A stretch of DNA of 61,180 nucleotides, filler included, from Hausera hauseri (GCA_046269625.1; 10 parts of 10 records of this genome joined end to end with filler, not necessarily neighbours in it); one strand, 5' to 3'; shown: positions 16,144 to 39,012, numbered from the whole stretch's first letter. The notes: generated by a model not told the origin, from the letters alone. Numbers and translations: made by a program.

Positions 16144-16243
16144 NNNNNNNNNNNNNNNNNNNNNNNNNNNNNNNNNNNNNNNNNNNNTTAATTAATTAAN
16201 NNNNNNNNNNNNNNNNNNNNNNNNNNNNNNNNNNNNNNNNNNN

Positions 16244-19200
16244 TTGGAGTAGTGGAAACATGCGTGGTAGATAGAGGAATTGAAATCGGGGTAGAGGTGG
16301 GTACAGGTGTAAGGAAGGAGCTTTATGTCTCGGTTGGTGAGGTATCGTCAACGTAAAAGGCGGGTTTTAGATTAGTGATATGCACAAAAACTTCTTTTCC
16401 ATCTTTGAGAATAATAGCGTTGTGTGAATGCAGCTGCACCAGTTTATATGGTCCTATGTACAGTGGTTGGAAACCGCACGGTGTCGGATATTTTAGCCAT
16501 ACAAACTTTGCCGAGTATAAATCTTCGGGTATATAAGATCTGTCATTGTGTATAAGCCTGCAAAAGGAATCTTTGCTAATTGTAATGAAATGATCTTGTG
16601 CTCCTTGTATTCTTTCGTCCGTAGGTGTCTCTTCAAGAGCCGTTAGTTCAAACAGTGACCATACAGGAGTTCCGAATAAAGCTTCCTTTGGTGAACATCC
16701 TGCGGACAAGGACGGAGTGTTCCGCCAGCCCAGCAGGACGAACGGTATAAGTGTAGTCCAATTGGTGTTTGACTGTGCAAGGATTCAAAGTGATGTTTTC
16801 AAGGTTCGGTGGAAACGTTCGAGGAGGCCATTTGATTGGGGATGATATGGTGTTGTATGATTGTGACTTATACCCAATGGGTTGACTAGAGATTTGAACA
16901 GATTTGACTCGAATGGTGGACCTTGGTCTGAGATGATATAATGAGGAGACCCGAACCTACTAATCCACGTACGGAATAAGGTATCGGCTATGGTGTCAGT
17001 GTTTGTACTCCGTAGTGGTATGGCTTCCGGCCATCGTGAAGAACGATCCATCACGGTCAGAATAAATTGGTGGCCGTTATCTATTGGGAGAGGGCCAACG
17101 ATGTCAATATGTACTGTTTCAAAAGGTGACGTACAAGGGAAATGGCATAATGGCGATTATAAATGTTTTATGGTTTTATACTTCTGACAAGCCACGCACT
17201 CTTTAACCCATGCAGGGTACCAAGAAAACTGCGCATTTCTGTTGTTGTCTTAGGTAGTTGGACATTTTTAAGAGTCTCGACTCGATCAGGCTGAGGTGAA
17301 TGGCTGTTTGAAGAGATAATATGTCCGGGGAAATTACCGCGATTCTGAAAGAAGTTATATTTCGCAAAATTGATCTGTAGATTGAACTGATTAAGTCGTT
17401 TGAAGATAGATCGTAGGTGTTCCTTGTGTTGTTTAACAGAACTAGAAGCAACCAAGATATCGTAAATATATGGATGCGCAAAGGTGACGTCTGAAAGGAT
17501 TGAATCAATGTGTTGATGAAAAGTCTGCGCGGAATTCCGGAGACCGAAAGGCATATACAAATACTCATAAAGACCAAAAGGTGTGGTAACTGCAGTTTTC
17601 TCTATGTCTTCCGGTGCGACAGAAATTTGGTGGTGAGCTTTGGCTAAAACGATTGTTGAATAAACTGAAGTAGTATTAAGAAGATGTAATATGTCTTTGA
17701 TTAATGGTAGTGGATATGTATCCATTACGGTTAAAATATTAAGCTGGCGGTAATCGCCGCATGGTCGGAAGGATCCATCCTTTCTTTGGACAATGTGGAG
17801 AGGCGACAATCAAGGGGATTTAGATCTGCGGACGATACCTGATTGTTCGAATTCCATAAATTACGCCTCTACTGCCTGCCTGCGACGCGGTGACAATGGA
17901 TGGACTTTTCGTCCAATTGGTCTTTAATGTTTTGTAATTATATGATGGTTAATGCCGTTTACAGGAATGAAATTCCGATCTTTCTGAAGTATACGAGGAC
18001 AACAAGTATAGATGAATTGTTTTAAACTTACGCGTAGTTGCTGGAATGTTGTGAGTGGCGATAAACCAAGGTTGCTATCAGTACTTGGTATATGGTGGTT
18101 GGTTGTTGATGAGGAATTGGGTGGAGTTTGAAGTAGGATGGACGGGTCCGGAACTGTATTTGAGTAGGTGTTGTTGTTCAGTGATTTTACTGAAAATACC
18201 AAATCGTGGGTGTCGGCATTGTGCTGTGATTGACTGTCGACATTGTCCTTTGGAAGCTTACGATGTAAAGCATTATAGTTATTGGAATTATAATGAGGTA
18301 CTGACTGTTTTAAAATTGATTACCTACTTACTGTTGACTGTGTTGTCGTTGGGGTGTTGTCTATTCCTGTGCTACAGTCTACAGGTGTATTCAATTTCAG
18401 GCATTTTTGGTTACAATCAACTAGCAAATTATAGTGCGAAAGGAAATCGGAGCCAAGTATTGCTGTCTGGACGTTAGCGACTGTAAACGTGCAATGAAAT
18501 AAAGGGGAAAATTTTGGTATAGTGAAAGATAATTTGCAAGTTCCGGCAATATGAAGAGGTTGACCGGAGACAGTGTATAAAGGTTTTGTTTTAGTTGAAG
18601 AATGCCGAATCGGAAAAGAAAGTGGTAGTAGTGAAATCGCTGTGCCGGTATCGATAAGAAGATCTATGGATTGAATGTTAGGATTAGAGATAGCGGCTTT
18701 TAGTGTAAAGACTTTAAATGAAGTGTGTCGGCAAGAGGAACTAAGTAAATTGCCTTTGTCAGAATCTGCCGAGAGTACTGGCGGCGAAATCAGTTTTTTT
18801 GGATTGGTGAGTTAGGATGGTTACTGTTTGAGACACTGGAACGTCTATTAGTGGTGTAGTTATTGTTAGTTTTATAGTTACAGCCGGAAATACAATTCCG
18901 AGTATTAGACCAAAATTTTGCATGATAGATGCAAACTATGTTATCCGAGTGTAAATTTGACGAATAATATCTACATCCTAAACAGCATTTATTTGCATTG
19001 TTATTAAATTTGTTGTGGTAATAACATATAACCGCGTTGGTGATGATGTTCGATTTCTAGAAGAAGAACGTGTTCAATGAGGTGAGGAAGCATTCCGTCG
19101 ATGTAAGGAAAGGTCACTCAGCTTATCATTGATAGTGCTGATTGTATGTTGTAGTGCTGCATTTTCGGCGCGTAATTTGTTTAATTGGTGCTTGATAGAT

Positions 19201-20769: not shown

Positions 20770-21140
20770 TCATGCCGGAATGATAGCAAAAACGCCTTAC
20801 GGACAAAACTAAGAAAAGTTTGAACGATCTTAAAGCGCCAATTCGAAAATTCTTGTGATTCGTATCAATGCCTGATGGAACATGATTCTCATATCGTCGT
20901 CAATTTGAATATTCAAAAGTGAAGGTAGGTCAACAATTTCAGATTTATTCATAACTGAAGGGAGTAACATTGGAATGGCAGATATACAGGATTTAAGAAA
21001 ATCAATTTTTTGTTTTCTATCGGCAGTTATGACATCATCCAATTCTTTAATAACGTTTTCCTGTTTCGTCAACAACGTCGTACGGATAACTTGTTGGTTC
21101 AATAGTTTTAACATAGTATCAAATGCTTGTCGAATGGGAT
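20770..21140 (-). pseudogene. FRY: Furry (FRY/FRYL, MOR2-PAG1 N-terminal region) gene fragment
   Basis: IRQAFDTMLKLLNQQVIRTTLLTKQENVIKELDDVITADRKQKIDFLKSCISAIPMLLPSVMNKSEIVDL...IDDDMR aligns co-linearly, from recall, with FRY [23 protein letters not shown]...[27 protein letters not shown]...MDDELR. Confidence 0.8.
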
Positions 21141-21419
21141 TCGTGCAACTACCTATAGGGGCTGTGTTCGTGTGGTTTAGTTTCATGGAAGGGTAACTTG
21201 ATTTACCTTTTGTGGAAATTTGCCGGTGTTGATTTGTTTGTTGATTCAAATCATTTGTTAAAACTGCTTTGATTCGATCGTGTAACTCGGCTGTTTTTTG
21301 ATAAGTGATATTGTGAGGCTAACGCCTGTGTGCCTTCTAATGACTGGAAAAGCGCTATCGTTGATGAATTAATTGTCAGAATTGGACTCTATTATGGACG
21401 ATGGCCCATCAAAATGAAA

Positions 21420-22930: not shown

Positions 22931-23276
22931 GATATTCATCAGTTTTCTTTCGTTCCGACTCGAATTACATTTCGAAATATTTGTTTTAATAATATTCACA
23001 CCGGTTTGAACTTGTAAGTAGCCACCATTGTCTTCTGTTCGTTTTCGTTCATTATTATTAACTGGTTGATGATCCTCAGTCAGAGGTTCAGCATTAAATC
23101 NNNNNNNNNNNNNNNNNNNNNNNNNNNNNNNNNNNNNNNNNNNNTTAATTAATTAANNNNNNNNNNNNNNNNNNNNNNNNNNNNNNNNNNNNNNNNNNNN
23201 CAATATTTATTTTTGGTAACAATTTGGTTCTAGAAAAAATCTAAACCAAATTGTTATTAATCATCAATTCACATCA

Positions 23277-23290
23277 TTCCCCTACCCTTA
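23277..23290 (-). promoter_or_regulatory. Polypurine tract
   Basis: Minus strand TAAGGGTAGGGGAA, immediately followed by TG (LTR start). A second copy is at 37735-37748. Confidence 0.85.
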
Positions 23291-23689
23291 AAGGGGGGAC
23301 AGCGAGAATTTGGAATCATCATTCAAGAATCATTCATACAAAATTCATGCACAAACAATTACTAATTAGTTCAAGTTTTAAAATACGACATACGAATGAA
23401 ATATTTAATTACTGGTTAAAATAGGAAATGAAAATATTATACAAAATGTGAAGGTGCTGATAAGATCAATAACCAAAGAGAAAAAGTGAAAAATATATAT
23501 ACAAGTTGCTCAAAATAAAATGATGCAAAAAAAATACAATATATACAAATTGCTAGAGAATACTTAGTCATACAACGATAAAAAATGAGAAATACAATAT
23601 ATACACAAGGTGAAGAAGACAATCAATTGTTAGATAAATGTTCAACGATCAATGTCTTTTTTCGGAGATTTTCGACATCCAGTTTAGTT

Positions 23690-26600
23690 TCAGATGTCTA
23701 AATCCACGTTTTCATATTGAATTCTGGTATGGATATAGTCCTCTTCATCTGGTTTGGAGCCCTTTCGCACACGCTCGATTGGAATCAAAACTGGTTTATT
23801 TGCTTTTATTAGCAGGATATACTTTAATTGACCTCCTTGAAACGATCTTTTGATATTGTCCAATTTTTCCTTGATCAAAAGTAACTGTAATTTGGTGTGG
23901 AATTTAATTCCAAAGTTTATTGGTAATTTCATGACGTTAAGTGTGCCGAGGTATGGAACAAGAAAATAGTCATTTTCCAACTTCTGGTATATCATTCCAA
24001 TTAATTTGTTTACTTCTGTGCTCCATTTGTAAACTTCATTAGAATCCAATGATTTTTCGATATAATAGGGACGTTCTATGTCATGTATTGGTACTGGTAG
24101 AGCTAGATATTCAATTTTAATAATAATACCAAAGTTGAAAACGATATCTTCTTTAGCGGATAAAGTGTCCTTTATTCTCATGGCGATTAAATCTACATCA
24201 GAAGTTTCTGTTTGAATTTGGACATTGACGGTTTTACAAGTTTTGTTCCATTGATCATATTCACGTTCTTGTTCGTCTTCTGACGCCATAAGTTGCAAAA
24301 TATCTTGATTATCTAGTTCAAAGATATCCGAATTCATTTCATCTGATTGCTGTCCGAGCTCAATGTTTTCTGGGGTGTTTAATTCTTCGTCTTCAGCTAT
24401 GGGATCGAATTCTGGTTTGCTGATACTTGCTTCAATATGGTGAATCCAACTGAAATTCTCCAAATATTTTTCCCGATTATAGAATAATTCACCAACGTCA
24501 ATAATATTATTGGATAAGTCATCTGGCATCCAACTGACCTGCCTTAAGTTTTTAATAGTTTTCAATATATCCATTGTAAGATCTATTTTGCCAATACTAT
24601 CTTGTTCGTAGGTATAACCATTTCGGATCTTGGGCAACTTCAACTCCTTGGCCACATTTGTGATATCTATGGCACTGAAGGATTTTTCTGTTACTTCGGG
24701 GTGTTTTAGCAAGTCAATAACACCCGCGAAGTAATTTGAGGGAATATCAAATAATTGGATCATTTTGTGCGTTTCAACACCGACTACAATGGTGCCGAAC
24801 AGCCATTGTATTAGTTCTTTGGTGACGTCGTATAAATCTATCGCGGAATTTTCGATGGAATAAAAATCTATTCCATGACGTCCCGTGTTACAATTGTGGA
24901 TTTTTTCTCTGTTGGCCACAAGTGTCTTGTACAGTATTCGACGATGTTGATCTGTAACAATTACTTCCACAGGTACTGGGGATTTATCCATTTTAAATCC
25001 CAGCGAAACAACCAAAATCCTAATTGTATTAGATTGTCCTGTACAGATATAGTTGGACTTTGTTTCTTGAATCAGTTCTGGGGGACTTTGAGCTATGATT
25101 AGTGGTCTGGGTAGAGCTAAATGCTTTTCCGGGATTATCCATTCGACCATTAATACTACTGGTATTCGATTAGGCCTAATTTGGATGTTCTTCACAGTTA
25201 AAGATGTATTAATCGCCAAGGTTTCCTCTTCCAATAAGGTTGTTATGTTTGACAGCTTGTATTGGCCATCCTTTGCTGTTTTTAGTACTATGGTTCCTCT
25301 GGCATTATGTATGACCAATCCTTCAATTGATGGGTATTCTGTAATAAATTCTTCCAGATTTCTTTGATGTGTCTCGGTGATAAGTACAATCCTCACTTGT
25401 CGATTCAGGGTGAGACCGTATTTGAATTGATTTGGAATTTTCGCCACATGGACGTAAAGAGACTGTGGGTACACGTTGGCTTGTCTTCGGATCGTATTAT
25501 AAAAATTTCTGGCCATGGTATGCGTAAATGAGGAGGTTTTTGTTGCGTATCGAGACAGTAACTGCTCAATTGTAAGGACTTCTGAATGAAACAACGGATG
25601 AGTTGAGGTGGATATCTGTCTATGTCGGATTTGTGACACGTTGACTTTTTGAGTTGGGTTTGACATGATGTATTGAACTTTCTGTAACAGATTTGACTGC
25701 AATTGAAGATTTTGACGATTTTTTGAAAAAGGGGCTGAATGATAAAGTTCATTAGATTTATACCTACCATAAACTGCGTGTGTGTCATGTGGTAACCACA
25801 TAACCAACGAATAAAGAATGAGCGGGCTTAATGTGCGTGGCGCAAGTGTGTGTGTGTCAATTCTAGGTGTCATCAGTTGTGACTGGACACCTGATTTTTG
25901 AGGGCAATAGCACGTGCTAGTGCTAGTAAGATATTTACGGTAAATTTTGGGTGACAGCAAAGCGCCCAGAGCCAAAACTACTAGTAACAATACACTTAAC
26001 ATTATTATTAACAAAGCACATACTGCTATGTTTATTTCTGTGACTTCAATGCTTTGTTTTAGCAATGAATCATTTCGAATATCTTTAGGGCTAAAGTGAA
26101 ATTTTACTACTTTGTTTATTTTTGACAAAGTTTTAATGTTGATTTCAGAATAATGCGTACAATTTTTTACTATTACTAGGTAATTTGTATCTGAGATCAA
26201 CCTTGTACAATAAGCATATTTTTGTTTTCTTTCTAAAATGATTTTTTGCTGGTTATATTGATCTATACATGTTATACTAACCCATTCATTTTTCGGGTTC
26301 ATTTGATAATTCCAAGTAAACGCTATTCTATCTGTTTTTGGATGGCTTATAATAAAGAGTTTACTGGTTATTTCAATTTCGTTGTGTCTAGCTAATTTTT
26401 TATATTCCTTATAGGATATATTACATCTATTTTGCTCGACCATGAATGCAGTATCGAAGAGACATTCATTGAGTCGATAGGGTATCAAACATTTGACACT
26501 AGATTTCACTATCAACTGCAAAATCCATTTGTTGTGTGCTTTTAATTTAAAGATTAGTGCTAACAGAGAATATGAATAGTCTCTAACAACTACTAAGCAA

Positions 26601-29600
26601 GTTTGGCTATTTTCATCATCTAAGTCTACAAAAGCTATTCTATCTTTATAGAAAGTTACAATTCGTATTGCAGTCATATTATTAGCTGATCTTTTTCGAA
26701 ATTGTATACAACCTTTTTTAAAATCTAATCCTATTATTTCTATTTCTTTATTAAATATCTGGTCACTAGGTGTATGGTTTTGATTTTGCTGAATGGCTTG
26801 AATCATTGTATCATAAGAGATGTAGAATTGACCAGAACTGGCTTGAGTACAGGATAATAAAATGATAAATGTGAATATCATTATTAACAAGTTAGTGGAT
26901 AATAAACTTGGTGATTTTAAACCGAATTTTCCTGTATAAGCTGTTGGAGCTTTAGTTACGTTTTGTATAGAGACATTCTCTATCTTTCCTGGAGATTTTT
27001 CTACAAATAAAGTTTGTGGTCTTACTTCGACGACTTTGTATGGTCCTTTGCCGGTACGAGTTAATTTTAATGATCTACCTTTTGTAGTTACTGGATAATG
27101 CGTCATAACAAAATCTCCGATTTTATATGGATTTGATTGAGTCTTTTTGTTGTAATGTTTTGTATATGAATTCTTGTAATCTTCTCTAACAGTCTTTGCT
27201 TGTTCGCCATAGTCATTTAACTGCTTTAACAGTGCTGTATAATTTTCTTCTTGTGGATTGTTAGTAAATGGTAACGCTGTTGGTAGCAAGCTAACATCTA
27301 ATGGGAGTAATGGTAACCGTCCAAACATTAATTCGTACGGTGTTTTGTTTGTACTTCTTGTTGGAGTAGTATTCATAGCAAAAGCTACTGTTGGCAACTT
27401 ATCTGGCCAATTTTTCTGATCTGCTGATACTTGTACGGATAAAATTCCTTGTACAGTTCTATTAGATCTTTCTACTTTCCCGTTGCACTGTGGGTGATAG
27501 GCTGTAGTTAAAACGTGTCTGGTTTGCAAGACTTTTGTGACTTCATTGAATAATTGACTTGTGAAGTATGGTGCTCTATCTGTCAATATCTGTCGCGGTG
27601 CACCTAAAACACATATTAGTTTATTAAACAATTCTAACGCTATGGTTTCTGTTGTCATAGCTTTCAAAGGAATTAGTACAATATAACTTGTATAGTAGTC
27701 TATGAAACTTAATATGTATTTGTAGCCATTTATCGAAGTTGGATATGGACCTGAAATATCCATTGCACATATTTCCATAGGTGCTTTTGGTTCTGGAAGT
27801 GTTCCTAATATTGGCTTTATGCTTCTTCCTCTATCCCTACGGGTGGCGCAAATCTTACAAGATTTGACCCAATTTACTATGTCTTCACTTTGGTTTGGCC
27901 AAAAATATTTAAGCTTAATTCGCTTTATCGTTTTGCCCATTGAGGGATGACCAGCTAGGTGAGAATCGTGTTCTTGCAATAATACTGATTTTATTAGTTC
28001 ATTAGGGATTACAATTAGTGCTTTGTCATGGTGTATATATTTTAGTATATTATGATCTATGATCAATCTGGTTTTGTGATCATTTAGCCATTCTGTTAAT
28101 CTTTTATCAATGTTCGGCATAAGCGATGTACGTACATATTCTTTTATTACATATAGCAGTGGATCATTGTCCTGCACATCTGCTATTTTTTCCGTATTAA
28201 GATTTGCAAAGGCTGTCATCATTTTATTGAATTCATGGTCATCTATTGGCACGATAGCTGCTGTATTTGGTTCAGAAGGATAAATGGTTCGAGATATAGC
28301 GTCGGCATCATTATGGAACTTTCCTGGCACGTATTTGAATTTGGGATTGTAGTTCAGCAATTCTAATTTCCATCGTTGAATCCTATTGTATATCCGTTTG
28401 TTCTTACAGTCAATATTCTCTAACGCTTGGTGATCAGTATATACTATGACAGGATATCCATAAATGTAAAATTCGTAATTTCGTAAGCCTTCTAGTACCG
28501 CTAAAAATTCTAATTCAGTAGTAGAGTAATTTTTCTCTTCTTTAGTTAGTGCTCTTCCACCATAAGCTACTACGTGCTCTATTTGTTCATTAGGATATTG
28601 TTGGGCTAAGATGTAACTTAGGCCGTTTAAGCTTGCATCAGTCTTTAAAATAAATGGTAATTCAAAATCTGGATATTGTAGAATAGGAGCTGAAACCATT
28701 TTCTTTTTCATGATGTCGAAAGCGTATTGATGCTTTTCTTCCCATATATATTTCTTGTCATTGCGCAATAATTCATACAATACACTGTTAATTTGTGAAA
28801 AGTTTTCAACAAAAATACTGTAAAATCCAATAAGTCCTAACCAACATTGCAATTCTTTTTTATTTGTAGGAGCCGGAAATTCTAAAACTTTAGCGACTAT
28901 ATGTGGACTAGTTTCGATTCCTTTGGCTGATATTTTAAAGCCTAAATATGTTACTGAAGTTTGACACCAATCGCATTTGAGTGGGTTCAATTTTAACTTA
29001 GCATCTCTTAATCTTTCAAAGACTTCCTTAAGTTGCTGTATATGCTCTTCCCAAGTTCTAGACGCTATTAAGATGTCGTCTATGTATGATAAGCTTCTAA
29101 TTCCTTTTAGTACTATTCTTATGAATTCTTGAAAGAATGTTGGAGCTGTTTTAAGTCCGAAAGGCATTCTTGTGAACTGATATATCCCAGTATGCGTTTT
29201 AAAAGCTGTTTTCCATTTATCGGCGGCAGTTATGGGTATGTTTAGAAAACCCCATTGTAAGTCTAATGCAGTAAATAAAGTACATCCTTTTAAATCGTTT
29301 ATTATTTCTTTAATTCGAGGAATTGGATAGATATGGTTTTCTAGATATTTGTTTAGCTGCACAAAATTAACACATAATCTTCTTTTTGTAGTATTCTTCT
29401 TTGGTACCATTACTATTGGTGACGCCCAAGAGGCTTGACTTGGTTCAACTATTCCTTTATCTAACCAATCTTGTATTTGTTCTTCCACTTCAGCTTGTAG
29501 TGAATGCGGTGGTGGATACCATTTTGGCATTGGCTGTCTATTCAAATCTATTTCTTTTCCAGTTTTTTCATCAGTTATTAAGTTTAATCGAAATTCAACG

Positions 29601-32600
29601 AGATCTGTACATCCGATATCTACATCATTAAGCGCAAAGATTTCTGAAAACTCTTTTATTAATTTAATCATGTCTTTTAATTGCTCCTCACTAACTCTTT
29701 GCTTAATGTTTGCTATCAATTGTTGGAAAATTTTGTGCTCATTCAACTCTGTCTGAGTGGTTGCTGCTAAGAAATCAGTGATATTTTGATCAAAGGTACG
29801 AAAAAATTCACCTATTCTAGTATTAGGATGTAAGATTTTTGTACGTTCAGAACAATTGGCTACTACAATCGGAATAGTGCCATTCTGTACTACTGTACAA
29901 ATTGTGGAAAAGTAGTATCCTCTTTCGAAATCTTTTGGTTCGAATTTTACTATTATATTCTCGGGTGCTAAAAGCTTTCCTTTAATTGTCATTTCGCAGT
30001 AAGGTGGTATAATTATTTCATCCATTATCCATACAGCATTTTTATACTTTGGATTGTCTTGTAGTGGTAGATGATGATTTATACAGATTTGTCCTGTGGA
30101 TAAGTCCATTACTGAGTTTTTCAGTTTTCTTAGAACGTCTACTCCAATAATCATTCTTGGGTATAATTCTTTCATTACTTGAATTGTAGCGGTTACTTTT
30201 TGTTCATAAATAACAATCTCAGTAGTCCAATATCCTATAGGAAACACTGTTTGTCCGAAAAGTGATACATTACCACTATCAGATGGGTTTGCTAATCTTA
30301 CTTCATGTTGATAATTCAATGGAATTACTGTTTGGTGTATCAAAGTTACTGTTGCTCCAGTATCTATTAAAGCACTTATTTCTGCATCTCGAATATGCAC
30401 AGTGGTTTGCGGTCTTGGATCATAAGTCCGACTGATTGATTGTAACTGCTTTTCTGTCGGGTTCCTAACCAAAGGTAACAACGAGTATACTCCAGCAGTT
30501 CTGATAACGCCGTTGTCAACAATAAATCTTCCATTTAAGGGCATTTCAGAAGTACTGTTTTCTATTAAGTTTGAATTAGTTAATAGTGGTGATGTTGGTC
30601 TGGATGAAGTAAATGTTGGTGGTGAGGTTGGTCTAGATGTTATCGTTGTAGTTGGCTTCCATTTCTGTGCTAAAGATGCTAAATCCGGATATTGACTTGT
30701 TCTTTTGAGTTGCTCATTTTCTACCTCATTAGTACGAGTGGGTGCTCCGGGTACCACGAATAATTTCCTATAATTTTCATGTTCGCAGTATGGGTCTCTG
30801 ATTTCCTTTTCGATTTTTTCCGTAATTAATGGCAAATTCTGAATATTTGTACTTGTCGACGGTAATTCTGTATAAGTATTGTTTTCAACATTCAGCCTCG
30901 GTGGAGATTTTGGTGGTGGTTTCTTTTTTCTATTATCTAAATTAACATGTTGCTCCACCAGATTCTTCCATCTTTTTTCTTCATGTGCTTTAAGTATTTT
31001 TCCGAAAGGTGTAAAAACAGCTGATAATATTTTTAGTGAGAATCCGGTAAGCGTGTATATTTCATAAGCATTTAGCAGTGATGATAATATGGCTTTTGCC
31101 GTCTGTATACTTAAATAAATTGTGAAAATTCCTGCTGATACGGTACCAAATTTTATGAATCCTCCCCATAATGTTTTTAAGAAGTTCATTGTTACTTCTT
31201 TATAATGGTCAGGACTTAATAGCTTTTCCCACCTTGCATCTTGTACTCCGTCATCTAATATACGATGTAATGCTTTATTTAATGCTTGTTCTCTTTGAAC
31301 AGGGTATCTCAATGCTTGAATCATGTCGTTTATCTCGTCTCTTGTGTAGAGAGTTGTTTTTGACAGATCTGTGAATAAGTTATTCTCTACAGCGTGTCGC
31401 AACGCTGTCATTGTAAGTCGTTTGGGTGTTTTATGCGGCTTTTTCCGCTCTGGTAGAACTACCCATGTGCCTTCATTGTCATATTTTATGTAAGGCTGAT
31501 ATAATGTTGTACAATTCACTATTTTAGTAGGCTCAGTGTTTTTATCCAACAGTATACGTGTTATTGGTTGTACATATCTAATCTTTTTCTTGTAGGTTAC
31601 TGGAATTTCAATGTAACATATATTCTTTAGAATTACTAGTGGCACTTCGACTCGTTTACATTTGTATGTAAATAGAGCTTCTCCAATGATTTTGCCTTGT
31701 ATGCCTTCGCCTAATGGCATGGTTATTGCCGCCATTTCTGGGTTGGTAGCTAAGATAGCTAGTCTATTTCTTAGGGTTTCAAGATTAACCTTACAGAAAT
31801 TTTCGATTATTTCTGTGTACATTTCATCAATAGTTTTCTGAGTTATATAAAATAAGGTGTCATCTCTGATGTTAAAATGATCGCCTATGTTTAGGAAACT
31901 TTTAATATCAACTGGTACATTATCTGCATCTGGCACTTCTGAATCTGCAATATAATAGGAGGGATAGTTTGTGGAATGAATTGCTTTTCCACACTTAAAC
32001 GTAGGTTCTTGTTGAATAAATTTCACTCCTCCTACAAGGTTGGCAGACATGATAATTGTAGGCGTTTTAATTTCTGGTATCTGGTTTACGTTGGTCTGTT
32101 CGAAATTCGTTTCGAAGTATTTAGCGTATCTTTTGCCTGAAGTCACGTTAAATATGCCTTTCTTTATCAGCACTAGATGGCAGTCAAATTTCTTTGGTAC
32201 ATCCCATATCAAAACTGAAGTTATAGTGTGGCAATATCCTTTGCCTAATTTACAGAATGCCGCATCCATCATGGCTTTAGTGTTCGTATCAAAGTTGTAT
32301 GTCTGTTGTTTTATTTGAATTCTATATTGGTCATGTACTATCAAACCTGATTGCGGTCCTTTGCCTAAATCATATGTTCCTCCATTACAATTTCCGCCTA
32401 AATCTTTAGTTCCAACAACATATCTTTCAGTTTGATGCACTTCACCTATACCGGCTTTTAATTCCATTCTATCATATCTCATAAATCCTGTGTCAATTGC
32501 TACTTTGCAAGCTTCAGGTGTTACCGCTTCTGGTTCCGGTATGGTTGTTGGGATAATGATAGTTTCGTGACTATGCATTCCGCAATAGGTTACTGTTCTT

Positions 32601-35600
32601 GATCTTGTTAGCATACATTCGTAGCCTTTTACTTGCACTGATGCTCGATCGTGATAAATATATAATGTCTTTTGTACTGTAGTTATATTTCTGGGATGTG
32701 CTTCTGGACATGAATCTAGATCCATTAAGGAGTAGTAGTCACCTTCATAAATATGTTCGCAATCATAGGCCAGAATGTTATTGCTTCTTTTAATTAGAGA
32801 CATAAGCATTAATATTAGAAATAATATTGAAGAATATGAAGAATTACTTCCTTTTGATCTCATATCCTTTATTTCAATTTCTAAGGACTTATTTAATTCA
32901 GTAGTTATTTTGGGTATCAAAATTTCTTCTTTGTCTATTACCGTTTTTAATACTGCATCAGCTTCTTCTTCGAGATCTACTGTATTTCGGACATTTCTTA
33001 GGAATAAATCATTCCATGAGCATTTGTTTGGCACTATGTTTTGGCTCAACTGTATAATCTTTCCGGTAACGGTTTTTACGTCACTTTGATCATGAATATC
33101 AGTTACTAATAGGCAAATACTTTTTTCTAGATTTTTTCGAGTAGGCTTTTCTATTAATATTTGGGCCAAATCTTCTGACGTAATATTTTTATACGCTGGA
33201 ATTTTCTTTAACTTTTTGATGTATTTCAATAATTCAAGTACTCTAATTCTCCATTTCTGATTAGAATTAGGTTTTGCCATGCCTCTATCAATATCAAATA
33301 TTTCTTTAATTAATCCTTTTACTTCTTTATATTCTTTATAGAGTTGTGGGACTTCGTAATCTTGTAACTGTTTTGCAAACTGCTGAGCTAGCGTAATAGT
33401 TTTTGTTCGCTTTGTTTTAGCAGCTTTATTTAAATCAAGCAGGGTGCATTTTGCAACGTTTTCTAACATTTTAGTGTCATCATTGCAGACTTCGTTTAAG
33501 TTAATAATTTCTGGCAGTATCTGTATTGGCTTAAAATCGCTTTCTTCTATTTCTATCATATAGGTTTTTTCTGGTAACATACCTAAATCCGAGACATAAT
33601 CATCTAGATTCAATGTTCGACCTTTAAAAGTATAGTTTAGCTCGTTCAATGGTTTGTCAATGCTTGCTCTGATATGAATGTCCAAATGTCTAACAGTTTC
33701 GTTGGTAGAAATTTTAATTTGTGGCATTATTAAACTGTTGAATTTTGGCACAACATTTATGTATTCATTTTCAAGAGTTATGGACTGTCTGATTTTTGCA
33801 CCTAATAATTTTAATAGCACTTTTGGAGTTGCATTATATAAATACTCATCGGCCGCTAATGGGATCAACTTATGTACGATTCTTCGTATTTCATCAGTAT
33901 TAGGTTTTTCTGCCAAATATGTTACTAGCAACGTTTCTAGAAAACTTGGGTGATTCTTAAAGGCATCTATTTGCTTCGATAGTTCATTTTCTGAACTCAA
34001 TTGTTGAGAATCTATTTTTTGTATAGCAACTTTTATTAAACCTTCTCTTCGTGGTCTGTGTGGGTCTTCATCAGAGTCCGAGGATATTACTACAGTATCA
34101 GATTTCTTTTCTTCTGTATCTGATAATACTATTACTGTGTCTAACTTTTTTCCTTCGGTATCTGTCAATGGCATTGTCTTTGATGAAGTAGAGTCTGATT
34201 CTTTATCTAAGTCTGTACTAAACAACATGTTATTTCTAATTTTATTTACTGTTGCTATGAATTCTTGCAATTTCTGTTCTTTTTCATCATTAGACTCGAT
34301 GCCTAACTTTCTAATTTCTTTTAGAATATTTATTAATTCTTTTTTCTGGTTAGTATCAATATCTTCATTATCTTTTAATATTTTCCGTACTTCGATCTTT
34401 AGTTCTGATATAGAGCTGATGAATTCTGTAGTGATTTCTAGTAGCTTACTTTGAATATCATTTAATGTTTCTAGTTTTTCCAAACTAAGAGGTTCTTTCT
34501 GACTTCTTTGGGTTAATATTTGAAGAGCACTCCATTTTTGTAGTTCAGAGGGTGATAATGCTTGATCTAATACGTCAGCTAACTCGATATTTGCAACAGT
34601 GAATTCGTCTATTTTATTTTTTATAAACACGGATTTATTTTCTAATATTTTAATATTGTCATTTAAAAGTTGCTTTTGTTTAGTTGATAATTTCTTAGTT
34701 TTTAATTTGTGCTGAACTAGTTTAACAATTACATCATCTAAATATTGCATTGTTGGATATTCTTTATCTGTAACTTCCTGTGCTTCTTTGAGCAAGTTTT
34801 CAAACTCAATTTCTTCAGGAGTTTTATCTTTATTTAATACTTCCACAATTACATCATCAATTCGTTTTTTCTGTTCTTCTTGAATTTCAATCTTTCGTGT
34901 TTCATAAAGCTCTTTCATAAGCTTATTGTAATTATCTTTTGATGAACTAGCAGTAGGTTGAAAATATGCATTAATAGATTCAAGTTTCTCTAATCCAAAA
35001 GGTATTTGTCCTCTAGCCATTATATCTAAATCTTTAATCATTTGATTCATGACTTTTCCTTTAGTTTCTTCAGAGATTTCTTGATCATCATGTATAAATT
35101 TATCAGCAAATTTTCTTGGCGGAGATTTTGAATTTTTTCTAGATTTTTTCAACTTTGTTAAAGTTTCTTCTGGAATGCTTTCTGGCACCTTTTTAGGCTT
35201 TTTTCCAGTGTAGCCAGGAGATATATTTTTTATTATTTTCTTTCCATCCTTATCAACAGCTGCTACTGGTACTGGCAAGGCATCAAAAGCCATTTGTTCT
35301 AATTCTGTTAATTGCTTTCCGGCAAAATATTTTCTTACTGCATTTTTATGCGCTTCAATAATTGCTAATTTAGCTTCCATAACTTCTTCATCATCTGTAC
35401 CACATGAATAAGGTGTACGATTTACACTAAAATTTTGTAGCTTTGCAAAATCCTTTGAATTTTGATTTGACATGGGCCAATGTTCAAGATAGTATTCAGT
35501 AGAAGGTCCAACAGTTTTTTCATTGAAGGCTGCAGATTTAGTGGTAGGCTCACTTTTTATTGGTAACTTATCATTTGGAGTTCTGCAATTATTAGCTGTA

Positions 35601-36439
35601 TGTCCATTACGTTGGCATCTATAACATTTTATAACTCTTCCAGCTCTATTCACATCTTCTCTACCATCATTCTGATAATTATTTCCTTTATAAGGTGGTC
35701 TATTGCCGTATTGATTTCTATTTTGGTTACTATTTTCATTTTGACTACTTGACGGATTCCGTCTACTTTCTTCTTGTGAATTGTTTTTTGATACATTAGC
35801 GTTAGGTGCTTGATAATTATTATCTCTATTTGTTTTTGGAGGTCTAAAAGCCTCAAAGTTCTGTGCCATTTTTAAAGCATCAGCAAATGTATTTGGACTT
35901 CCAGCCAAAACCTTATATTTTAAATCTGGTACTAAACCTCGGATAAATTGCGTAGACAGTAAAATATCAGTGTCAACCTTGATATCCTCGACATCATCCT
36001 TATTTCCTTTTCTCATTTTAGTTAATTTAATTGCTTCAACATAATTTGAAATTAATTGTCTTAAAGAATATGCAAATTGAGTCACTGATTCATTTTTTTG
36101 AAACTTATTTTGAAAAATTATTAATTGTTGTTGAGGGGTCATGGTCGGCAGAAATCTATCTATCATTGCTATGCTTATAGTATTCCAATTTTTTCGTTCA
36201 GCATCACTTAAATCATTGTAAGCATCTATAGCTATATCAGTTAAATACAAAGGTAAACGTCTAATTTGATCTTTTTCACTTAATTCTAATGCGGTACTTT
36301 GCGATTTATAAGTTTTCAAAAATGGTAACAACTTATCGGGTTGACCATTAAATTTCTCTACATCGATTTTAAAGTTTCTGAAATCATACACATTTACATT
36401 ATCTTTAGCCATATTTTGGTTAAATTTAAGTTTTTCCAA
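23690..36439 (-). CDS. 4249-aa polyprotein: Gag - accessory insert - chuvirus-like glycoprotein - PR - RT - RNase H - IN - membrane FN3-like protein - exonuclease-like domain (first ATG at 36412)
   Basis: Capsid-like region (FNGQPDKL...ESVTQFAYSL...FIRGL). CCHC CYRCQRNGHTANNC at 35585-35626. AYDC and CGMHSH glycoprotein motifs. DTG at 30356-30364. YIDD at 29075-29086. RNase H TDAS...ELE...TDH...ADAISR. Integrase HHCC, DDE and GPY (27038-27046). No stop or frameshift. Confidence 0.95.
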   Translation of the reverse strand: MEKLKFNQNMAKDNVNVYDFRNFKIDVEKFNGQPDKLLPFLKTYKSQSTALELSEKDQIRRLPLYLTDIAIDAYNDLSDAERKNWNTISIAMIDRFLPTMTPQQQLIIFQNKFQKNESVTQFAYSLRQLISNYVEAIKLTKMRKGNKDDVEDIKVDTDILLSTQFIRGLVPDLKYKVLAGSPNTFADALKMAQNFEAFRPPKTNRDNNYQAPNANVSKNNSQEESRRNPSSSQNENSNQNRNQYGNRPPYKGNNYQNDGREDVNRAGRVIKCYRCQRNGHTANNCRTPNDKLPIKSEPTTKSAAFNEKTVGPSTEYYLEHWPMSNQNSKDFAKLQNFSVNRTPYSCGTDDEEVMEAKLAIIEAHKNAVRKYFAGKQLTELEQMAFDALPVPVAAVDKDGKKIIKNISPGYTGKKPKKVPESIPEETLTKLKKSRKNSKSPPRKFADKFIHDDQEISEETKGKVMNQMIKDLDIMARGQIPFGLEKLESINAYFQPTASSSKDNYNKLMKELYETRKIEIQEEQKKRIDDVIVEVLNKDKTPEEIEFENLLKEAQEVTDKEYPTMQYLDDVIVKLVQHKLKTKKLSTKQKQLLNDNIKILENKSVFIKNKIDEFTVANIELADVLDQALSPSELQKWSALQILTQRSQKEPLSLEKLETLNDIQSKLLEITTEFISSISELKIEVRKILKDNEDIDTNQKKELINILKEIRKLGIESNDEKEQKLQEFIATVNKIRNNMLFSTDLDKESDSTSSKTMPLTDTEGKKLDTVIVLSDTEEKKSDTVVISSDSDEDPHRPRREGLIKVAIQKIDSQQLSSENELSKQIDAFKNHPSFLETLLVTYLAEKPNTDEIRRIVHKLIPLAADEYLYNATPKVLLKLLGAKIRQSITLENEYINVVPKFNSLIMPQIKISTNETVRHLDIHIRASIDKPLNELNYTFKGRTLNLDDYVSDLGMLPEKTYMIEIEESDFKPIQILPEIINLNEVCNDDTKMLENVAKCTLLDLNKAAKTKRTKTITLAQQFAKQLQDYEVPQLYKEYKEVKGLIKEIFDIDRGMAKPNSNQKWRIRVLELLKYIKKLKKIPAYKNITSEDLAQILIEKPTRKNLEKSICLLVTDIHDQSDVKTVTGKIIQLSQNIVPNKCSWNDLFLRNVRNTVDLEEEADAVLKTVIDKEEILIPKITTELNKSLEIEIKDMRSKGSNSSYSSILFLILMLMSLIKRSNNILAYDCEHIYEGDYYSLMDLDSCPEAHPRNITTVQKTLYIYHDRASVQVKGYECMLTRSRTVTYCGMHSHETIIIPTTIPEPEAVTPEACKVAIDTGFMRYDRMELKAGIGEVHQTERYVVGTKDLGGNCNGGTYDLGKGPQSGLIVHDQYRIQIKQQTYNFDTNTKAMMDAAFCKLGKGYCHTITSVLIWDVPKKFDCHLVLIKKGIFNVTSGKRYAKYFETNFEQTNVNQIPEIKTPTIIMSANLVGGVKFIQQEPTFKCGKAIHSTNYPSYYIADSEVPDADNVPVDIKSFLNIGDHFNIRDDTLFYITQKTIDEMYTEIIENFCKVNLETLRNRLAILATNPEMAAITMPLGEGIQGKIIGEALFTYKCKRVEVPLVILKNICYIEIPVTYKKKIRYVQPITRILLDKNTEPTKIVNCTTLYQPYIKYDNEGTWVVLPERKKPHKTPKRLTMTALRHAVENNLFTDLSKTTLYTRDEINDMIQALRYPVQREQALNKALHRILDDGVQDARWEKLLSPDHYKEVTMNFLKTLWGGFIKFGTVSAGIFTIYLSIQTAKAILSSLLNAYEIYTLTGFSLKILSAVFTPFGKILKAHEEKRWKNLVEQHVNLDNRKKKPPPKSPPRLNVENNTYTELPSTSTNIQNLPLITEKIEKEIRDPYCEHENYRKLFVVPGAPTRTNEVENEQLKRTSQYPDLASLAQKWKPTTTITSRPTSPPTFTSSRPTSPLLTNSNLIENSTSEMPLNGRFIVDNGVIRTAGVYSLLPLVRNPTEKQLQSISRTYDPRPQTTVHIRDAEISALIDTGATVTLIHQTVIPLNYQHEVRLANPSDSGNVSLFGQTVFPIGYWTTEIVIYEQKVTATIQVMKELYPRMIIGVDVLRKLKNSVMDLSTGQICINHHLPLQDNPKYKNAVWIMDEIIIPPYCEMTIKGKLLAPENIIVKFEPKDFERGYYFSTICTVVQNGTIPIVVANCSERTKILHPNTRIGEFFRTFDQNITDFLAATTQTELNEHKIFQQLIANIKQRVSEEQLKDMIKLIKEFSEIFALNDVDIGCTDLVEFRLNLITDEKTGKEIDLNRQPMPKWYPPPHSLQAEVEEQIQDWLDKGIVEPSQASWASPIVMVPKKNTTKRRLCVNFVQLNKYLENHIYPIPRIKEIINDLKGCTLFTALDLQWGFLNIPITAADKWKTAFKTHTGIYQFTRMPFGLKTAPTFFQEFIRIVLKGIRSLSYIDDILIASRTWEEHIQQLKEVFERLRDAKLKLNPLKCDWCQTSVTYLGFKISAKGIETSPHIVAKVLEFPAPTNKKELQCWLGLIGFYSIFVENFSQINSVLYELLRNDKKYIWEEKHQYAFDIMKKKMVSAPILQYPDFELPFILKTDASLNGLSYILAQQYPNEQIEHVVAYGGRALTKEEKNYSTTELEFLAVLEGLRNYEFYIYGYPVIVYTDHQALENIDCKNKRIYNRIQRWKLELLNYNPKFKYVPGKFHNDADAISRTIYPSEPNTAAIVPIDDHEFNKMMTAFANLNTEKIADVQDNDPLLYVIKEYVRTSLMPNIDKRLTEWLNDHKTRLIIDHNILKYIHHDKALIVIPNELIKSVLLQEHDSHLAGHPSMGKTIKRIKLKYFWPNQSEDIVNWVKSCKICATRRDRGRSIKPILGTLPEPKAPMEICAMDISGPYPTSINGYKYILSFIDYYTSYIVLIPLKAMTTETIALELFNKLICVLGAPRQILTDRAPYFTSQLFNEVTKVLQTRHVLTTAYHPQCNGKVERSNRTVQGILSVQVSADQKNWPDKLPTVAFAMNTTPTRSTNKTPYELMFGRLPLLPLDVSLLPTALPFTNNPQEENYTALLKQLNDYGEQAKTVREDYKNSYTKHYNKKTQSNPYKIGDFVMTHYPVTTKGRSLKLTRTGKGPYKVVEVRPQTLFVEKSPGKIENVSIQNVTKAPTAYTGKFGLKSPSLLSTNLLIMIFTFIILLSCTQASSGQFYISYDTMIQAIQQNQNHTPSDQIFNKEIEIIGLDFKKGCIQFRKRSANNMTAIRIVTFYKDRIAFVDLDDENSQTCLVVVRDYSYSLLALIFKLKAHNKWILQLIVKSSVKCLIPYRLNECLFDTAFMVEQNRCNISYKEYKKLARHNEIEITSKLFIISHPKTDRIAFTWNYQMNPKNEWVSITCIDQYNQQKIILERKQKYAYCTRLISDTNYLVIVKNCTHYSEINIKTLSKINKVVKFHFSPKDIRNDSLLKQSIEVTEINIAVCALLIIMLSVLLLVVLALGALLSPKIYRKYLTSTSTCYCPQKSGVQSQLMTPRIDTHTLAPRTLSPLILYSLVMWLPHDTHAVYGRYKSNELYHSAPFSKNRQNLQLQSNLLQKVQYIMSNPTQKVNVSQIRHRQISTSTHPLFHSEVLTIEQLLSRYATKTSSFTHTMARNFYNTIRRQANVYPQSLYVHVAKIPNQFKYGLTLNRQVRIVLITETHQRNLEEFITEYPSIEGLVIHNARGTIVLKTAKDGQYKLSNITTLLEEETLAINTSLTVKNIQIRPNRIPVVLMVEWIIPEKHLALPRPLIIAQSPPELIQETKSNYICTGQSNTIRILVVSLGFKMDKSPVPVEVIVTDQHRRILYKTLVANREKIHNCNTGRHGIDFYSIENSAIDLYDVTKELIQWLFGTIVVGVETHKMIQLFDIPSNYFAGVIDLLKHPEVTEKSFSAIDITNVAKELKLPKIRNGYTYEQDSIGKIDLTMDILKTIKNLRQVSWMPDDLSNNIIDVGELFYNREKYLENFSWIHHIEASISKPEFDPIAEDEELNTPENIELGQQSDEMNSDIFELDNQDILQLMASEDEQEREYDQWNKTCKTVNVQIQTETSDVDLIAMRIKDTLSAKEDIVFNFGIIIKIEYLALPVPIHDIERPYYIEKSLDSNEVYKWSTEVNKLIGMIYQKLENDYFLVPYLGTLNVMKLPINFGIKFHTKLQLLLIKEKLDNIKRSFQGGQLKYILLIKANKPVLIPIERVRKGSKPDEEDYIHTRIQYENVDLDI
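31013..32830 (-). other. Chuvirus-type (class III-like) envelope glycoprotein domain inside the polyprotein
   Basis: Hydrophobic signal ILFLILMLMSLI, then AYDC...YSLMDLDSC, C..TRSRTVTYCGMHSH, CNGG, CKLGKGYC...W, GE..FTYKC..VEV, CYIEIPV...P.TRIL...C, and a C-terminal TM region LWGGFIKFG...GFSLKILSAVF. Confidence 0.82.
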
Positions 36440-36944
36440 AAGAACAATAGGTAAATTAGTGCTTGTTTTAGCAAGACTTTGACTTCTAGTTAGTCTTCTG
36501 TTATTTTCTATTTTGGCTCTGAGAACTTTTACTGTTTTTTGATATATATATACCCTTTGTAATTTTATTAATTATTACTTTAGGTATACTAGTGATTTTT
36601 AAGTGTGCGACTTCTTGACTGTCAGAGTCAGATGTCTAAACTTGGCAAAAAGGTAACTTTAAATGTTTAATTACTGTATTAGTATTTTTCCCCCACCCTT
36701 AAGAGGTTAGTAGGATTTTACACAAAAAGAGGAATAAGAAGTTCAGACACGAGTGCTGCTTCTTTCGACGATAACAACTTTTTTTTTATCAAGACAACGT
36801 GACCACCTTCGTGGTATGGGTCAATGAATTCAAGAAAGTTATCGTAATTAGTAAAGTAGATATGTGAACCGTTAAGTTTCACAGAAAATGGAGCGATAGG
36901 ACGTTTAAAGAAGTTAACAAGACGATCAAACATCAAAAGATTTG

Positions 36945-36957
36945 TGTTCGGGCGCCA
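36945..36957 (-). promoter_or_regulatory. Primer-binding site, tRNA-Lys(UUU) type
   Basis: Minus strand TGGCGCCCGAACA matches the first 13 nt of the tRNA-Lys3 PBS and lies 5 nt after a CA LTR end. Confidence 0.85.
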
Positions 36958-36962
36958 ATTAT

Positions 36963-37734
36963 TGTATTTCACGATTTTTTGAAGAATCAATGAAATACTC
37001 TGAGGGAAAAAATAAAGTTTATAACTTTAAATGGTGTGTTAAAATTTTGTAATGAATGCGGAAAAGGTGGAGATTGATTAATTAACTTCGGTTTTCTGTG
37101 AACCGAGTTTAAGAATTTTACTTAGAACAATTAAAAAGATTTAACGAACAAATATAATGAACACAACAAATACAATAATTCCTTATAGGAATCCAAATAC
37201 CAAAAAGATTCTTGACAAATTAAATGGTAACTATTTGCACCAAAATAAAATGACAAGAAAGTTCAAATAAAATATTACTCTTGTAGAGTAACCAATACTA
37301 ATTCAATAATTGCAATTGTTCTTACAGAACAATTAAATTCCAATTATTCAATAATAAGACAATAAATGAAGCTTTACCCGAGGATCTAGTTCAGCACAAG
37401 ACTAAGCATAAACAGCAGAGAATATCATCAAACAATTTTTCATCAAAAATTTACGCTCAAACAATTTTTTCTTCCATACTGAAATTCGTTTCAGTATATA
37501 TACCTTTGATGCTTCTAATCTTAGTGACAAAAAGGGTATAGAACATGTTATTCAGCGATTGTTAAGCGTTCTAAATTTGGGTATAAATTTGGGGTAGAAA
37601 AAATCCTCACTAAATACATTACCAAACTATTTATGGTAACAAAACAGGGGTAGAAAACTAATATTTATTTTTGGTAACAATTTGGTTCTAGAAAAAATCT
37701 AAACCAAAGTGTTATTAGTCATCAATTCACAACA
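36963..37734 (-). repeat. LTR (~770 bp)
   Basis: Bounded by the PPT+TG and CA+PBS. The first 76 nt recur at 23201-23276 with 4 differences. TATA-like TATATATA at ~37495. Confidence 0.8.
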
Positions 37735-39012
37735 TTCCCCTACCCTTAAAGGGGGACAGCGAGAATTAGAGTCATCATTCAAGAATCATTCATACAAAAT
37801 TCATACACAAACAATTACTGATTAGTTCAATTTTAGAATACAACATACGAATGAAATATTTAATTATTGGTTGAAAATAGGAAATGAAAATATTATACAA
37901 AAATGTGAAGGTGCTAAAGAGAAAAAGTGANNNNNNNNNNNNNNNNNNNNNNNNNNNNNNNNNNNNNNNNNNNNTTAATTAATTAANNNNNNNNNNNNNN
38001 NNNNNNNNNNNNNNNNNNNNNNNNNNNNNNTTACATTGCTGCCCTGGGGGGTAGATTTTTCAATGACTGTATTACAACAAGTCTGCAGAGTCAATACACA
38101 AAACTTTCGACTCAGACTCTGATATTTCTGGTGCTTCCAAATCCCAGCTGCTCAAAAATTGCCTTGACTCCAACTACTTGACAGGTTTGTAGGATCGGAC
38201 ATGAAACTTTTGACTCCAACATTTCTAGTTCTTCTGTTCTAGATACCCAAAAAATTTCACTGACAATGTCCAAAGATTTACAAATTCTACCTTTACCTAC
38301 TACCAGTTATTAATCAGAGAAACGCCTGACCAGTGTCTCTCACAGCATGTACTCCATAGCAGAAGTGGCATCCCTTGATGTTTCTAGAGCATGAATTCTG
38401 CTGTCCATTTTATAATGGGTGGGTGAACATCAGGAGTTATGTTTTTGTAAACCATGGGTCCAGAACCAAAGTTAAACCCGGGTCACCTGGACCAAAACCT
38501 AAACAGCAGGCGAATGACTTTTTGACTACACTACTGCGGCTCTCTAGAAAGAACGTAGCTGGTAGCAGCCTATCAGCCTCCTGCACTGTTTTTTTTATTT
38601 CCACTATCACGAGATACAGGAAATGTATAACATGAATATCAGACTGTCACGATCTCAAAATGGACAAAGTGTTTAATCCTAGAACCACAGTTAAAGTTTG
38701 GTACTGGCAACAAAGTAAAACCCACATATCATAGCCAAACACAGACTCGGCTAACTAAATAAACAGATGTGAGGACACATATGAACACTTGAGGACATAT
38801 TAGAAGTGACTAGGTCAGTGACAGTTAACACTCTCGGGAAGCTCTTGATTTGGTAATCTGAGAAAGTATGGGCATTACTTGAATGTCAGAAGGTTCCTAA
38901 ATCAAACAATCAACCAGTCTAGCTCTAAGATGGAAAACAAACAGTAAAATTACGTGTGTGAGATTAATCAACCAGGAGGGTTAGTACAATGAAATGCACT
39001 AATCAGGAAGGT

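Follow-up and report, generated by a model that had tools for sequence, protein, structure and literature searches.

A retroelement that encodes a fusion glycoprotein in frame between Gag and Pol raises the question of where its enzymes come to lie relative to the membrane, and by what route they would reach a budding particle. One such element occupies the minus strand of the window studied here, that is, the whole 61,180-nucleotide stretch joined from ten parts of ten records of the Hausera hauseri genome (GCA_046269625.1), from whose first letter all positions are counted. Judged from its sequence, it is a Ty3/gypsy long terminal repeat (LTR) element with a chuvirus/gB-type glycoprotein, and its single open reading frame (ORF) runs in the order Gag, signal 1, glycoprotein (G), transmembrane segment 1 (TM1), protease-reverse transcriptase-RNase H-integrase (PR-RT-RH-IN), signal 2, a second ectodomain, TM2 and an RNase T-like tail. 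A first-pass annotation had taken five hydrophobic stretches in this frame to bring the polyprotein into the endoplasmic reticulum (ER) at least twice and to leave Pol cytosolic. All five lie where they were placed, within one stop-free ORF; signal 1, signal 2 and TM2 are clear, but the third signal-like stretch is not. The reading that we consider probable is that the polyprotein enters the ER twice and yields three chains, each anchored in the membrane, Pol looping out into the cytosol.

The element and its relatives

When cut into eight fragments, the ORF matched Pfam in the order zinc knuckle, Monjiviricetes_fusion (PF24664), protease, reverse transcriptase, RNase H and integrase, with no significant match beyond the integrase. 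The type of Pol, the PR-RT-RH-IN order with its catalytic motifs, the position of ENV, and LTRs accompanied by a primer-binding site, which we take to be tRNA-Lys-like, are those of a GAG-ENV-POL element of the gB type within Ty3/gypsy. The LTR portions at 37660-37915 and 23202-23458 are 94.2% alike over 259 columns. The element measures ~14.7 kb between gaps, and both of its ends enter runs of N, so that the LTR termini and any target-site duplication fall outside view. In one sequencing run, possibly the source of the window, 11,848 contigs fell on the element, most of them 90-95% alike, a depth that is not a copy number. Contig joints were thinly covered and short on their sides, and are not read as splicing.

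A full HMMER search with the G of the window returned 1,063 proteins at E <=0.001, of which the best 150 were examined. The top matches listed were long polyproteins with an internal G (P0002 at 33% identity), and domain scans of the relatives placed G ahead of the protease. Word-index searches with the same query found none among long proteins, which the full search did find, and are thus of low sensitivity. A second search, with the G of P0004, gave 16 matches, 13 of them new. Signal 1 was compared across 26 G-containing polyproteins (window included), TM1 across 24 (the truncated P0006 and P0020 being left out), and the C-terminal part across 15 relatives with a complete integrase; P0007, P0153 and P0154 were dropped as near-duplicates or fragments. 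Hydropathy is given as the best 11- or 19-residue Kyte-Doolittle mean (KD11, KD19). Conservation in the G alignment was nowhere sufficient for a locus scan. In a tree of the RT-RH region from 17 proteins, with published sequences outside it, the window sits on a long branch and is 38-42% alike to the 16 others. The closest relative by G, P0002, carries the label of a hypothetical protein from a bacterial metagenome-assembled genome, where it is probably a eukaryotic contaminant. Extra protease-like copies flank Pol in P0152 (six), P0157, P0160, P0164 and others, the window having one protease, and ankyrin and ubiquitin-like domains also occur among these relatives.

The Gag of the window matches that of the relatives, carries its zinc knuckle at residues 314-330 (Pfam), and is predicted to be cytosolic. 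The spacer of some 900 residues behind it gave no significant Pfam or PDB match, and the hydropathy peak of Gag and spacer together (KD11 1.63) is at background.

Signal 1 and the fusion glycoprotein

The G ectodomain is predicted to be luminal. Each of its 14 cysteines is kept in 23/23 relatives, and a sequence search of solved structures returned none that matches G. Among 95 free-standing G proteins (600-720 residues, starting with Met), 81 carry, after a hydrophobic stretch at the N-terminus, a [YF]DC motif that falls within residues 11-50; the same arrangement, now internal, is found in 26/26 polyproteins, a count that speaks for presence only, the search pattern having demanded the hydrophobic stretch. 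Across these polyproteins the KD11 of signal 1 ranges from 2.15 to 3.42, and the best peaks in the window's Gag (1.63), G ectodomain (1.80) and Pol (2.14) are far under its signal 1, signal 2 and TM2.

Counted back from the Tyr of this motif, a small residue stands at Y-4 (24/26 polyproteins, 68/81 free G proteins) and at Y-6 (22/26 and 52/81), with a large hydrophobic residue (I, L, F) at Y-3, which puts the predicted cleavage site of the family three residues ahead of the Tyr. In the window, cleavage may occur at this site, with Asn at -1, or at a small-residue alternative between ILA and YDC. Cleavage immediately before AYDC, as first annotated, is in the wrong register, since it would put Leu at -1 and fits neither of these sites.

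TM1 and the location of Pol

The glycoprotein anchor had been annotated as one stretch, 31013-31172. Alignment to relatives does recognise TM1 there, but the segment is weak when taken alone (KD11 1.63), and the stretch holds two helices, TM1 and a short second one. The charge-free run of TM1 is 18 residues long in the window, 21 in 13 of 15 relatives and 29 in P0013, that of P0164 lying outside the slice examined; the uncharged part of the second helix counts 10 residues, in the window as in 14 of the 15 relatives, and 11 in P0013. Because 10-11 uncharged residues are too few to span the membrane, TM1 reads as single-pass, and the second helix likely rests on the cytosolic membrane surface. 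Pol is accordingly predicted to be cytosolic, as TM1 looks single-pass. From TM1 to the end of the integrase, no segment reaches KD11 >=2.5 in the window or in 14/15 relatives, and the Pol background peak of 2.14 is a buried RNase H strand. One TM after a gB-type ectodomain was also predicted by DeepTMHMM in published elements (Chary and Hayashi, PMC13524379; this and all other sources given by PMC number are represented here by part of their text).

The predicted cytosolic tail of G carries a further feature: of 23 linkers after TM1, Tyr-Pro is present in 22 (8.5 expected) and YPx[LI] is present in 11 (1.6 expected). [quoted passage not shown] In free G proteins (among P0017-P0151), the last 60 residues hold YPx[LI] in 33/81 (1.9 expected) and P[TS]AP in 12/81 (0.5 expected). 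These patterns suggest that chuvirus-like G proteins at large carry late domains of their own; for the polyproteins, the alternative to a late domain would be a protease site at Tyr-Pro.

A predicted second membrane protein downstream of integrase

A signal-like segment follows the integrase in 14 of the 15 relatives, and 12 of the 15 also have the later TM2 (that of P0004 and P0160 passing only the 15- and 21-residue windows). The KD11 of signal 2 ranges from 2.72 to 3.67 over 15 segments. With the window included, 13/15 proteins have a net positive charge ahead of signal 2 and 11/13 have one after TM2; the flanks of TM2 in the window itself have a net charge of -2 before and +3 after.

Between these segments lies an ectodomain that models as a fibronectin type III (FN3) fold. 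A profile of 13 repeats from nine relatives (window excluded) matches residues 3414-3478 of the window at 24.9 bits and scores 28.4 against the whole window ectodomain, against <=12.7 in 1,000 shuffles, and on this sequence comparison the second ectodomain of the window is homologous to those of its relatives. An 11-row ectodomain alignment (window included) gave 33 PDB profile matches at E <=10 (best E 0.0038), all of them weak and, apart from one that is unnamed, FN3-bearing by molecule name (for instance neogenin, DCC, EphA2 and Dscam). The ectodomain model, built from those 11 sequences, has seven strands at a predicted local distance difference test (pLDDT) score of 61; by VIA it is closest to fibronectin FN3 domains (Z 8.8, root-mean-square deviation 2.6 over 84 residues), and Foldseek agrees with FN3 (best E 0.0044). 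A single-sequence fold reached pLDDT 37 and was not used, and FN3 leads for the second ectodomain in the Atlas all stayed below 0.9. Ahead of the FN3-like domain there may be another beta domain, more diverged.

The content of this slot varies. Relatives have 1-3 FN3-like repeats, P0167 has an Ig-like domain instead (Ig_3 E 1.5e-05, below cut-off), and P0165 and P0166 have a short Cys-rich domain. In related contigs, 15 of 30 differences from signal 2 to TM2 were synonymous, where 20% would be expected over all changes (P 0.0002) and 33% over transitions (P 0.044), and none was a stop; the count was drawn from the 40 best-supported of 148 contig differences, a selected subset, and gives a modest hint of constraint.

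The tail after TM2

Behind TM2 the window continues for 758 residues, as opposed to 36-120 in the 12 relatives with TM2. Residues 3840-4040 score 0.93-0.94 against RNase_T clusters in the Atlas, with 10/10 best matches in one clan; the sole PDB match of this nuclease-like part is SDN1 (E 0.4), and Pfam has no match there. The ExoI D-x-E motif is absent, the corresponding strand reading ILVVSLGF, and the domain is likely inactive. None of the stored relatives shares it, and residues 3590-3850 had no match in the searches. The G+C content of third codon positions is 0.34-0.38 in the tail vs 0.18-0.29 upstream, and the tail may be a later capture; DEDD nucleases are known as retroelement cargo in rotifers (PMC5408684). 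Few contigs of two sequencing runs fall on 23201-25660 relative to the element core, as if the nuclease-like tail were limited to a subfamily, although depth is not copy number.

Proposed topology and its alternatives

We infer from these segments a topology in which Gag and PR-RT-RH-IN are cytosolic, and G and the second ectodomain luminal. In this the first-pass annotation is borne out, as a prediction, by homology, conservation and charge bias, but not in its third signal-like stretch. Signal peptidase would cut the polyprotein into three membrane-anchored chains. The first would be Gag and spacer with the remnant of signal 1 as a C-terminal anchor, a polarity reverse to that of orthoretroviral Gag. 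The second would comprise G, TM1, its tail and PR-RT-RH-IN, anchored again by the remnant of signal 2, such that Pol forms a doubly tethered loop; tethering through the G tail, as annotated, agrees with TM1 upstream but is incomplete, because the signal 2 remnant would also anchor Pol downstream. The third, a type I protein, would begin with the FN3-like ectodomain and continue through TM2 into a cytosolic tail that holds the nuclease-like domain, likely inactive. A single membrane would thereby bring all parts together with no frameshift involved; ESCRT would be recruited for budding by the YPxL motif of the G tail, and the enzymes would be freed by the protease of the element. The third chain would act, most likely, as an attachment or accessory partner of the fusogen, an attachment role alone being nearer to even odds.

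Several observations weigh against this topology. The relatives share descent and are not independent samples; P0156 is without signal 2, and P0167 and P0013 are without a clear TM2. TM1 of the window has a 19-residue mean of 1.41, the least hydrophobic of the 24 aligned proteins, and the second helix of P0164 scores equal to its TM1. P0152 has one extra strong segment (aa 2095) between TM1 and RT, where a weaker uncharged run that follows, recognised by eye, would restore parity, and P0016 has two extra strong segments before G. At signal 1 the window departs from the family by its Asn at -1, and at the second ectodomain the FN3 model is of middling quality, with Pfam fn3 matched by 0/11 members. 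N-glycosylation sequons total 58 in the second ectodomains of 14 proteins vs 36.3 +/- 5.6 expected, but this test is weak because the G ectodomains have a deficit of sequons (27 vs 42), RT-IN has a slight excess (66 vs 53), and the second ectodomain of the window itself shows no enrichment (4 vs 2.6 expected).

The low hydrophobicity of the window's TM1 and its internal Lys, along with the difference of about 6% between the LTR parts, would suit a decaying copy or a means of down-regulation, in which TM1 fails as a stop-transfer segment, or pairs with the second helix as a hairpin, and Pol is luminal in much of the protein. This is very unlikely, however, as the second helix is short, with 10 uncharged residues, signal 2, the FN3 domain and the basic flank of TM2 would all be inverted by a hairpin, and the same tail region of free G proteins carries the cytosol-acting YPx[LI] and P[TS]AP motifs in the numbers given above. 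Somewhat less remote, but still improbable, is a third ER entry at 25770-25832 that renders the tail secreted or luminal. By eye the stretch is signal-like, with 13 mostly apolar residues ahead of T-H-A and then V. Its KD11 of 1.94 is nevertheless under the Pol background and three peaks within the tail (background peak 2.35), as well as under all 26 signal 1 and 15 signal 2 segments, and the annotation of this stretch as a signal is not upheld. It precedes a domain resembling RNase T/ISG20 nucleases, which fits a cytosolic tail with no third ER entry; sequons in the tail show no excess (5 vs 5.2 expected), and the short tails of the 12 relatives with TM2 leave such an entry without comparative support.

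Two further alternatives accept the topology and concern its use. Single-ORF LTR elements adjust their Gag:Pol ratio by splicing or degradation, and a 1:1 ratio of Gag, G and Pol would be unusual for retroviruses. Packaged Pol could then come from a Gag-Pol message that bypasses env, by splicing or otherwise, and the surplus of Gag from a truncated product, with tethered Pol as a by-product; the annotated idea that tethering takes the place of a Gag-Pol fusion is accordingly a conjecture. No RNA run was listed for the stretch, a blank that has no bearing on expression. Twelve of the 20 slippery heptamers in the ORF lie in Gag and spacer, although the DNA is AT-rich and these counts are without a null. 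Signal 2 follows the integrase in frame in 14/15 relatives, however, so a spliced Gag-Pol would still end membrane-anchored, and the continuous frame is kept across proteins as distant as the RT-RH comparison indicates; this alternative is consequently regarded as unlikely. A better case, though one still on the doubtful side, can be made for the second membrane protein as captured host-like cargo, serving as an immune decoy, in receptor interference or in producer-cell adhesion, in place of a virion attachment protein. The slot is conserved and its content changes from FN3-like repeats to Ig-like and Cys-rich domains, and Burro elements are known collectors of cargo (PMC6431247). Against this, the second protein would by construction be made 1:1 with the fusogen on the same membrane, and PPxY occurs in 2/13 TM2 tails. 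Receptor-binding partners of fusogens also vary fast.

The most far-reaching form of the twice-entering topology is a lineage of animal LTR retroelements with two-glycoprotein particles from one polyprotein, in which a class III fusogen is joined by a swappable attachment protein of FN3/Ig type, capsid and enzymes are recruited purely by membrane anchors, and the late domain that drives budding resides in the glycoprotein tail and not in Gag. This we put forward tentatively, as a minority possibility. Were it true, a reverse-transcribing element would assemble by a logic like that of flaviviruses and would divide attachment from fusion in the manner of herpes- and paramyxoviruses.

Feature coordinates and the remainder of the window

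Table 1. Positions of the element's features in the window, in the order of transcription.
Feature	Position	Strand	Remarks
5' LTR, partial	36958..37930	(-)	start inside N gap; ends at primer-binding site
Primer-binding site TGGCGCCCGAAC	36946..36957	(-)	single match in window, 0.09 expected
Single ORF, 4,293 codons stop to stop	23690..36571	(-)	first Met is residue 54 (nt 36412)
Gag: capsid-like region and CCHC zinc knuckle, aa 54-335	35567..36412	(-)	zf-CCHC E 0.00038; Retrotrans_gag E 0.004 (below cut-off)
Charged spacer, about 900 aa, between nucleocapsid and signal 1	32837..35566	(-)	no hydrophobic segment
Signal 1, predicted internal signal peptide of G, aa 1249-1268	32768..32827	(-)	KD11 3.07
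G ectodomain, chuvirus/mononegavirus-like class III fusion glycoprotein	31166..32767	(-)	Pfam PF24664 E 1.3e-75, aa 1250-1887
TM1, predicted anchor of G, aa 1805-1825	31097..31159	(-)	one Lys near start; recognised by alignment to relatives
Short second hydrophobic helix, aa 1848-1857	31001..31030	(-)	10 uncharged residues between Lys/Arg
YPDL in G tail, late-domain-like (ALIX-type) motif or Tyr-Pro protease site	30680..30691	(-)	
Aspartic protease (LIDTGA)	30116..30418	(-)	RVP E 2.6e-09
Reverse transcriptase (YIDD) and RNase H	28349..29407	(-)	RVT_1 E 1.1e-30; RT_RNaseH E 3.2e-30
Integrase (HHCC, D-D-E, C-terminal domain)	26957..28009	(-)	Integrase_H2C2 E 1e-17; rve E 1.7e-11
Signal 2, aa 3223-3244	26840..26905	(-)	predicted cleavage between TQA and SS; KD11 3.29; counterpart in 14/15 relatives
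Second ectodomain, 270 aa	26030..26839	(-)	one FN3-like domain about 26111-26365
TM2, then basic, predicted cytosolic flank	25952..26029	(-)	KD11 3.45, KD19 3.37
Third signal-like stretch of the first-pass annotation	25770..25832	(-)	KD11 1.94
RNase T / ISG20-like (DEDDh) domain	24542..25030	(-)	without first acidic D-x-E motif; predicted cytosolic
3' LTR, partial	23201..23489	(-)	runs into N gap; start not fixed

The window consists of short contigs chained by N gaps with a 12-base linker, and neighbours across gaps are possibly not adjacent in the genome; runs of N stand at 5431, 10175, 16144, 23101, 37931, 42086, 47344, 51905 and 56224. Between two of these gaps, an array of ~1,480 (GAAC)n copies (10275-16143) accounts for long frames without stops at 10219-16191 that do not represent genes. 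Other gypsy-type RT/integrase fragments, 27-35% alike to the element, lie at 16671-17890 (-) and 3950-4426 (+), and BEL/Pao pieces with RVT_1 and Peptidase_A17 at 46039-47132 (+). DNA_pol_B_2 and Endonuclease_7 matches occur in two pieces, 53835-54923 and 58377-59027 (-), presumably Polinton/Maverick-like. A MOR2-PAG1_N match (E 5.6e-08) at 20833-21318 (-) is perhaps an exon of a host furry-like gene, and three nested inverted repeats of 49-119 nt at 8274-9040 possibly mark a small DNA transposon.

Relation to known systems and significance

In the planarian Burro/GYPSM1 elements, an Env related to mononegavirus fusion glycoproteins is likewise found in frame between gag and pol, within a polyprotein of >4,000 residues, a layout termed "the first case" (Arkhipova and Yushenova 2019, PMC6431247). 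The window shares this layout in one ORF, and the relative P0152 (4,844 residues, with ankyrins) resembles the Burro description. Burro proper was considered for the window and rejected, its length being >30 kb against ~14.7 kb between gaps here, with no BIR, BCL2, ankyrin or ubiquitin-like Pfam match. The portion of the Burro account available makes no mention of a post-integrase membrane protein, an FN3 domain or topology (PMC6431247). GAG-ENV-POL "errantiviruses" with an HSV/gB-type ENV (HSV, herpes simplex virus) are reported from Platyhelminthes, Nematoda and Bryozoa (Chary and Hayashi, eLife 2026, PMC13524379), and the window resembles them in gene order, Ty3/gypsy Pol, and a chuvirus-like G with a signal and one TM. 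Six planarian "C1a" ENV fragments from that work resemble the G of the window and its relatives by eye only, none being identical (PMC13524379), and by resemblance alone the planarian elements are the closest published group. The words "polyprotein", "fused", "fibronectin", "late domain", "ESCRT", "cytoplasmic" and "exonuclease" do not occur in the available main text of that paper, nor does "fibronectin" in seven supplements to it (PMC13524379).

The mosquito BEL/Pao element Anakin also holds a chuvirus-derived glycoprotein inside an LTR element (PMC7642597), and that of the window is of the same Pfam family. It was nonetheless rejected as the identity of the present element, whose Pol is Ty3/gypsy (RVP, RT_RNaseH, Integrase_H2C2) without Peptidase_A17 or DUF5641, and whose G precedes the protease. 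The glycoprotein-linked budding of foamy viruses (PMC3705266) offers an analogy for assembly, with no homology claimed. A second analogy, again without claim of homology, is with flavivirus and alphavirus polyproteins, whose internal signals thread the chain through the ER repeatedly and leave the capsid with a C-terminal anchor; unlike these, the window has its replication enzymes between two glycoproteins. Non-canonical nematode endogenous retroviruses, with Env before pol and a continuous gag-env-pro-pol ORF, have reportedly been described by Sacco et al. in J Gen Virol in 2022. The literature searched yielded no account of the second membrane protein or its fold, of the late-domain motif or of the topology; the Sacco 2022 and Grohme 2018 papers are outside that literature and may bear on them. 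No title among the late-domain papers listed concerned chuvirus or retroelement G tails, and the available parts of the Troyka paper (PMC12440569) and of PMC11410931 contain nothing on a second membrane protein or topology.

How elements of the gB type enter cells is unknown, and HSV needs gD, gH and gL for entry (PMC13524379). The in-frame gag-env-pol order has already been published, and the parts worth following are the second surface protein, with its conservation, and a Pol predicted to be anchored at both ends. The layout would demand a packaging of reverse transcriptase and integrase other than by Gag-Pol fusion, and a conserved second type I membrane protein, predicted to be made in step with the fusogen, provides a concrete candidate partner for gB-type entry.

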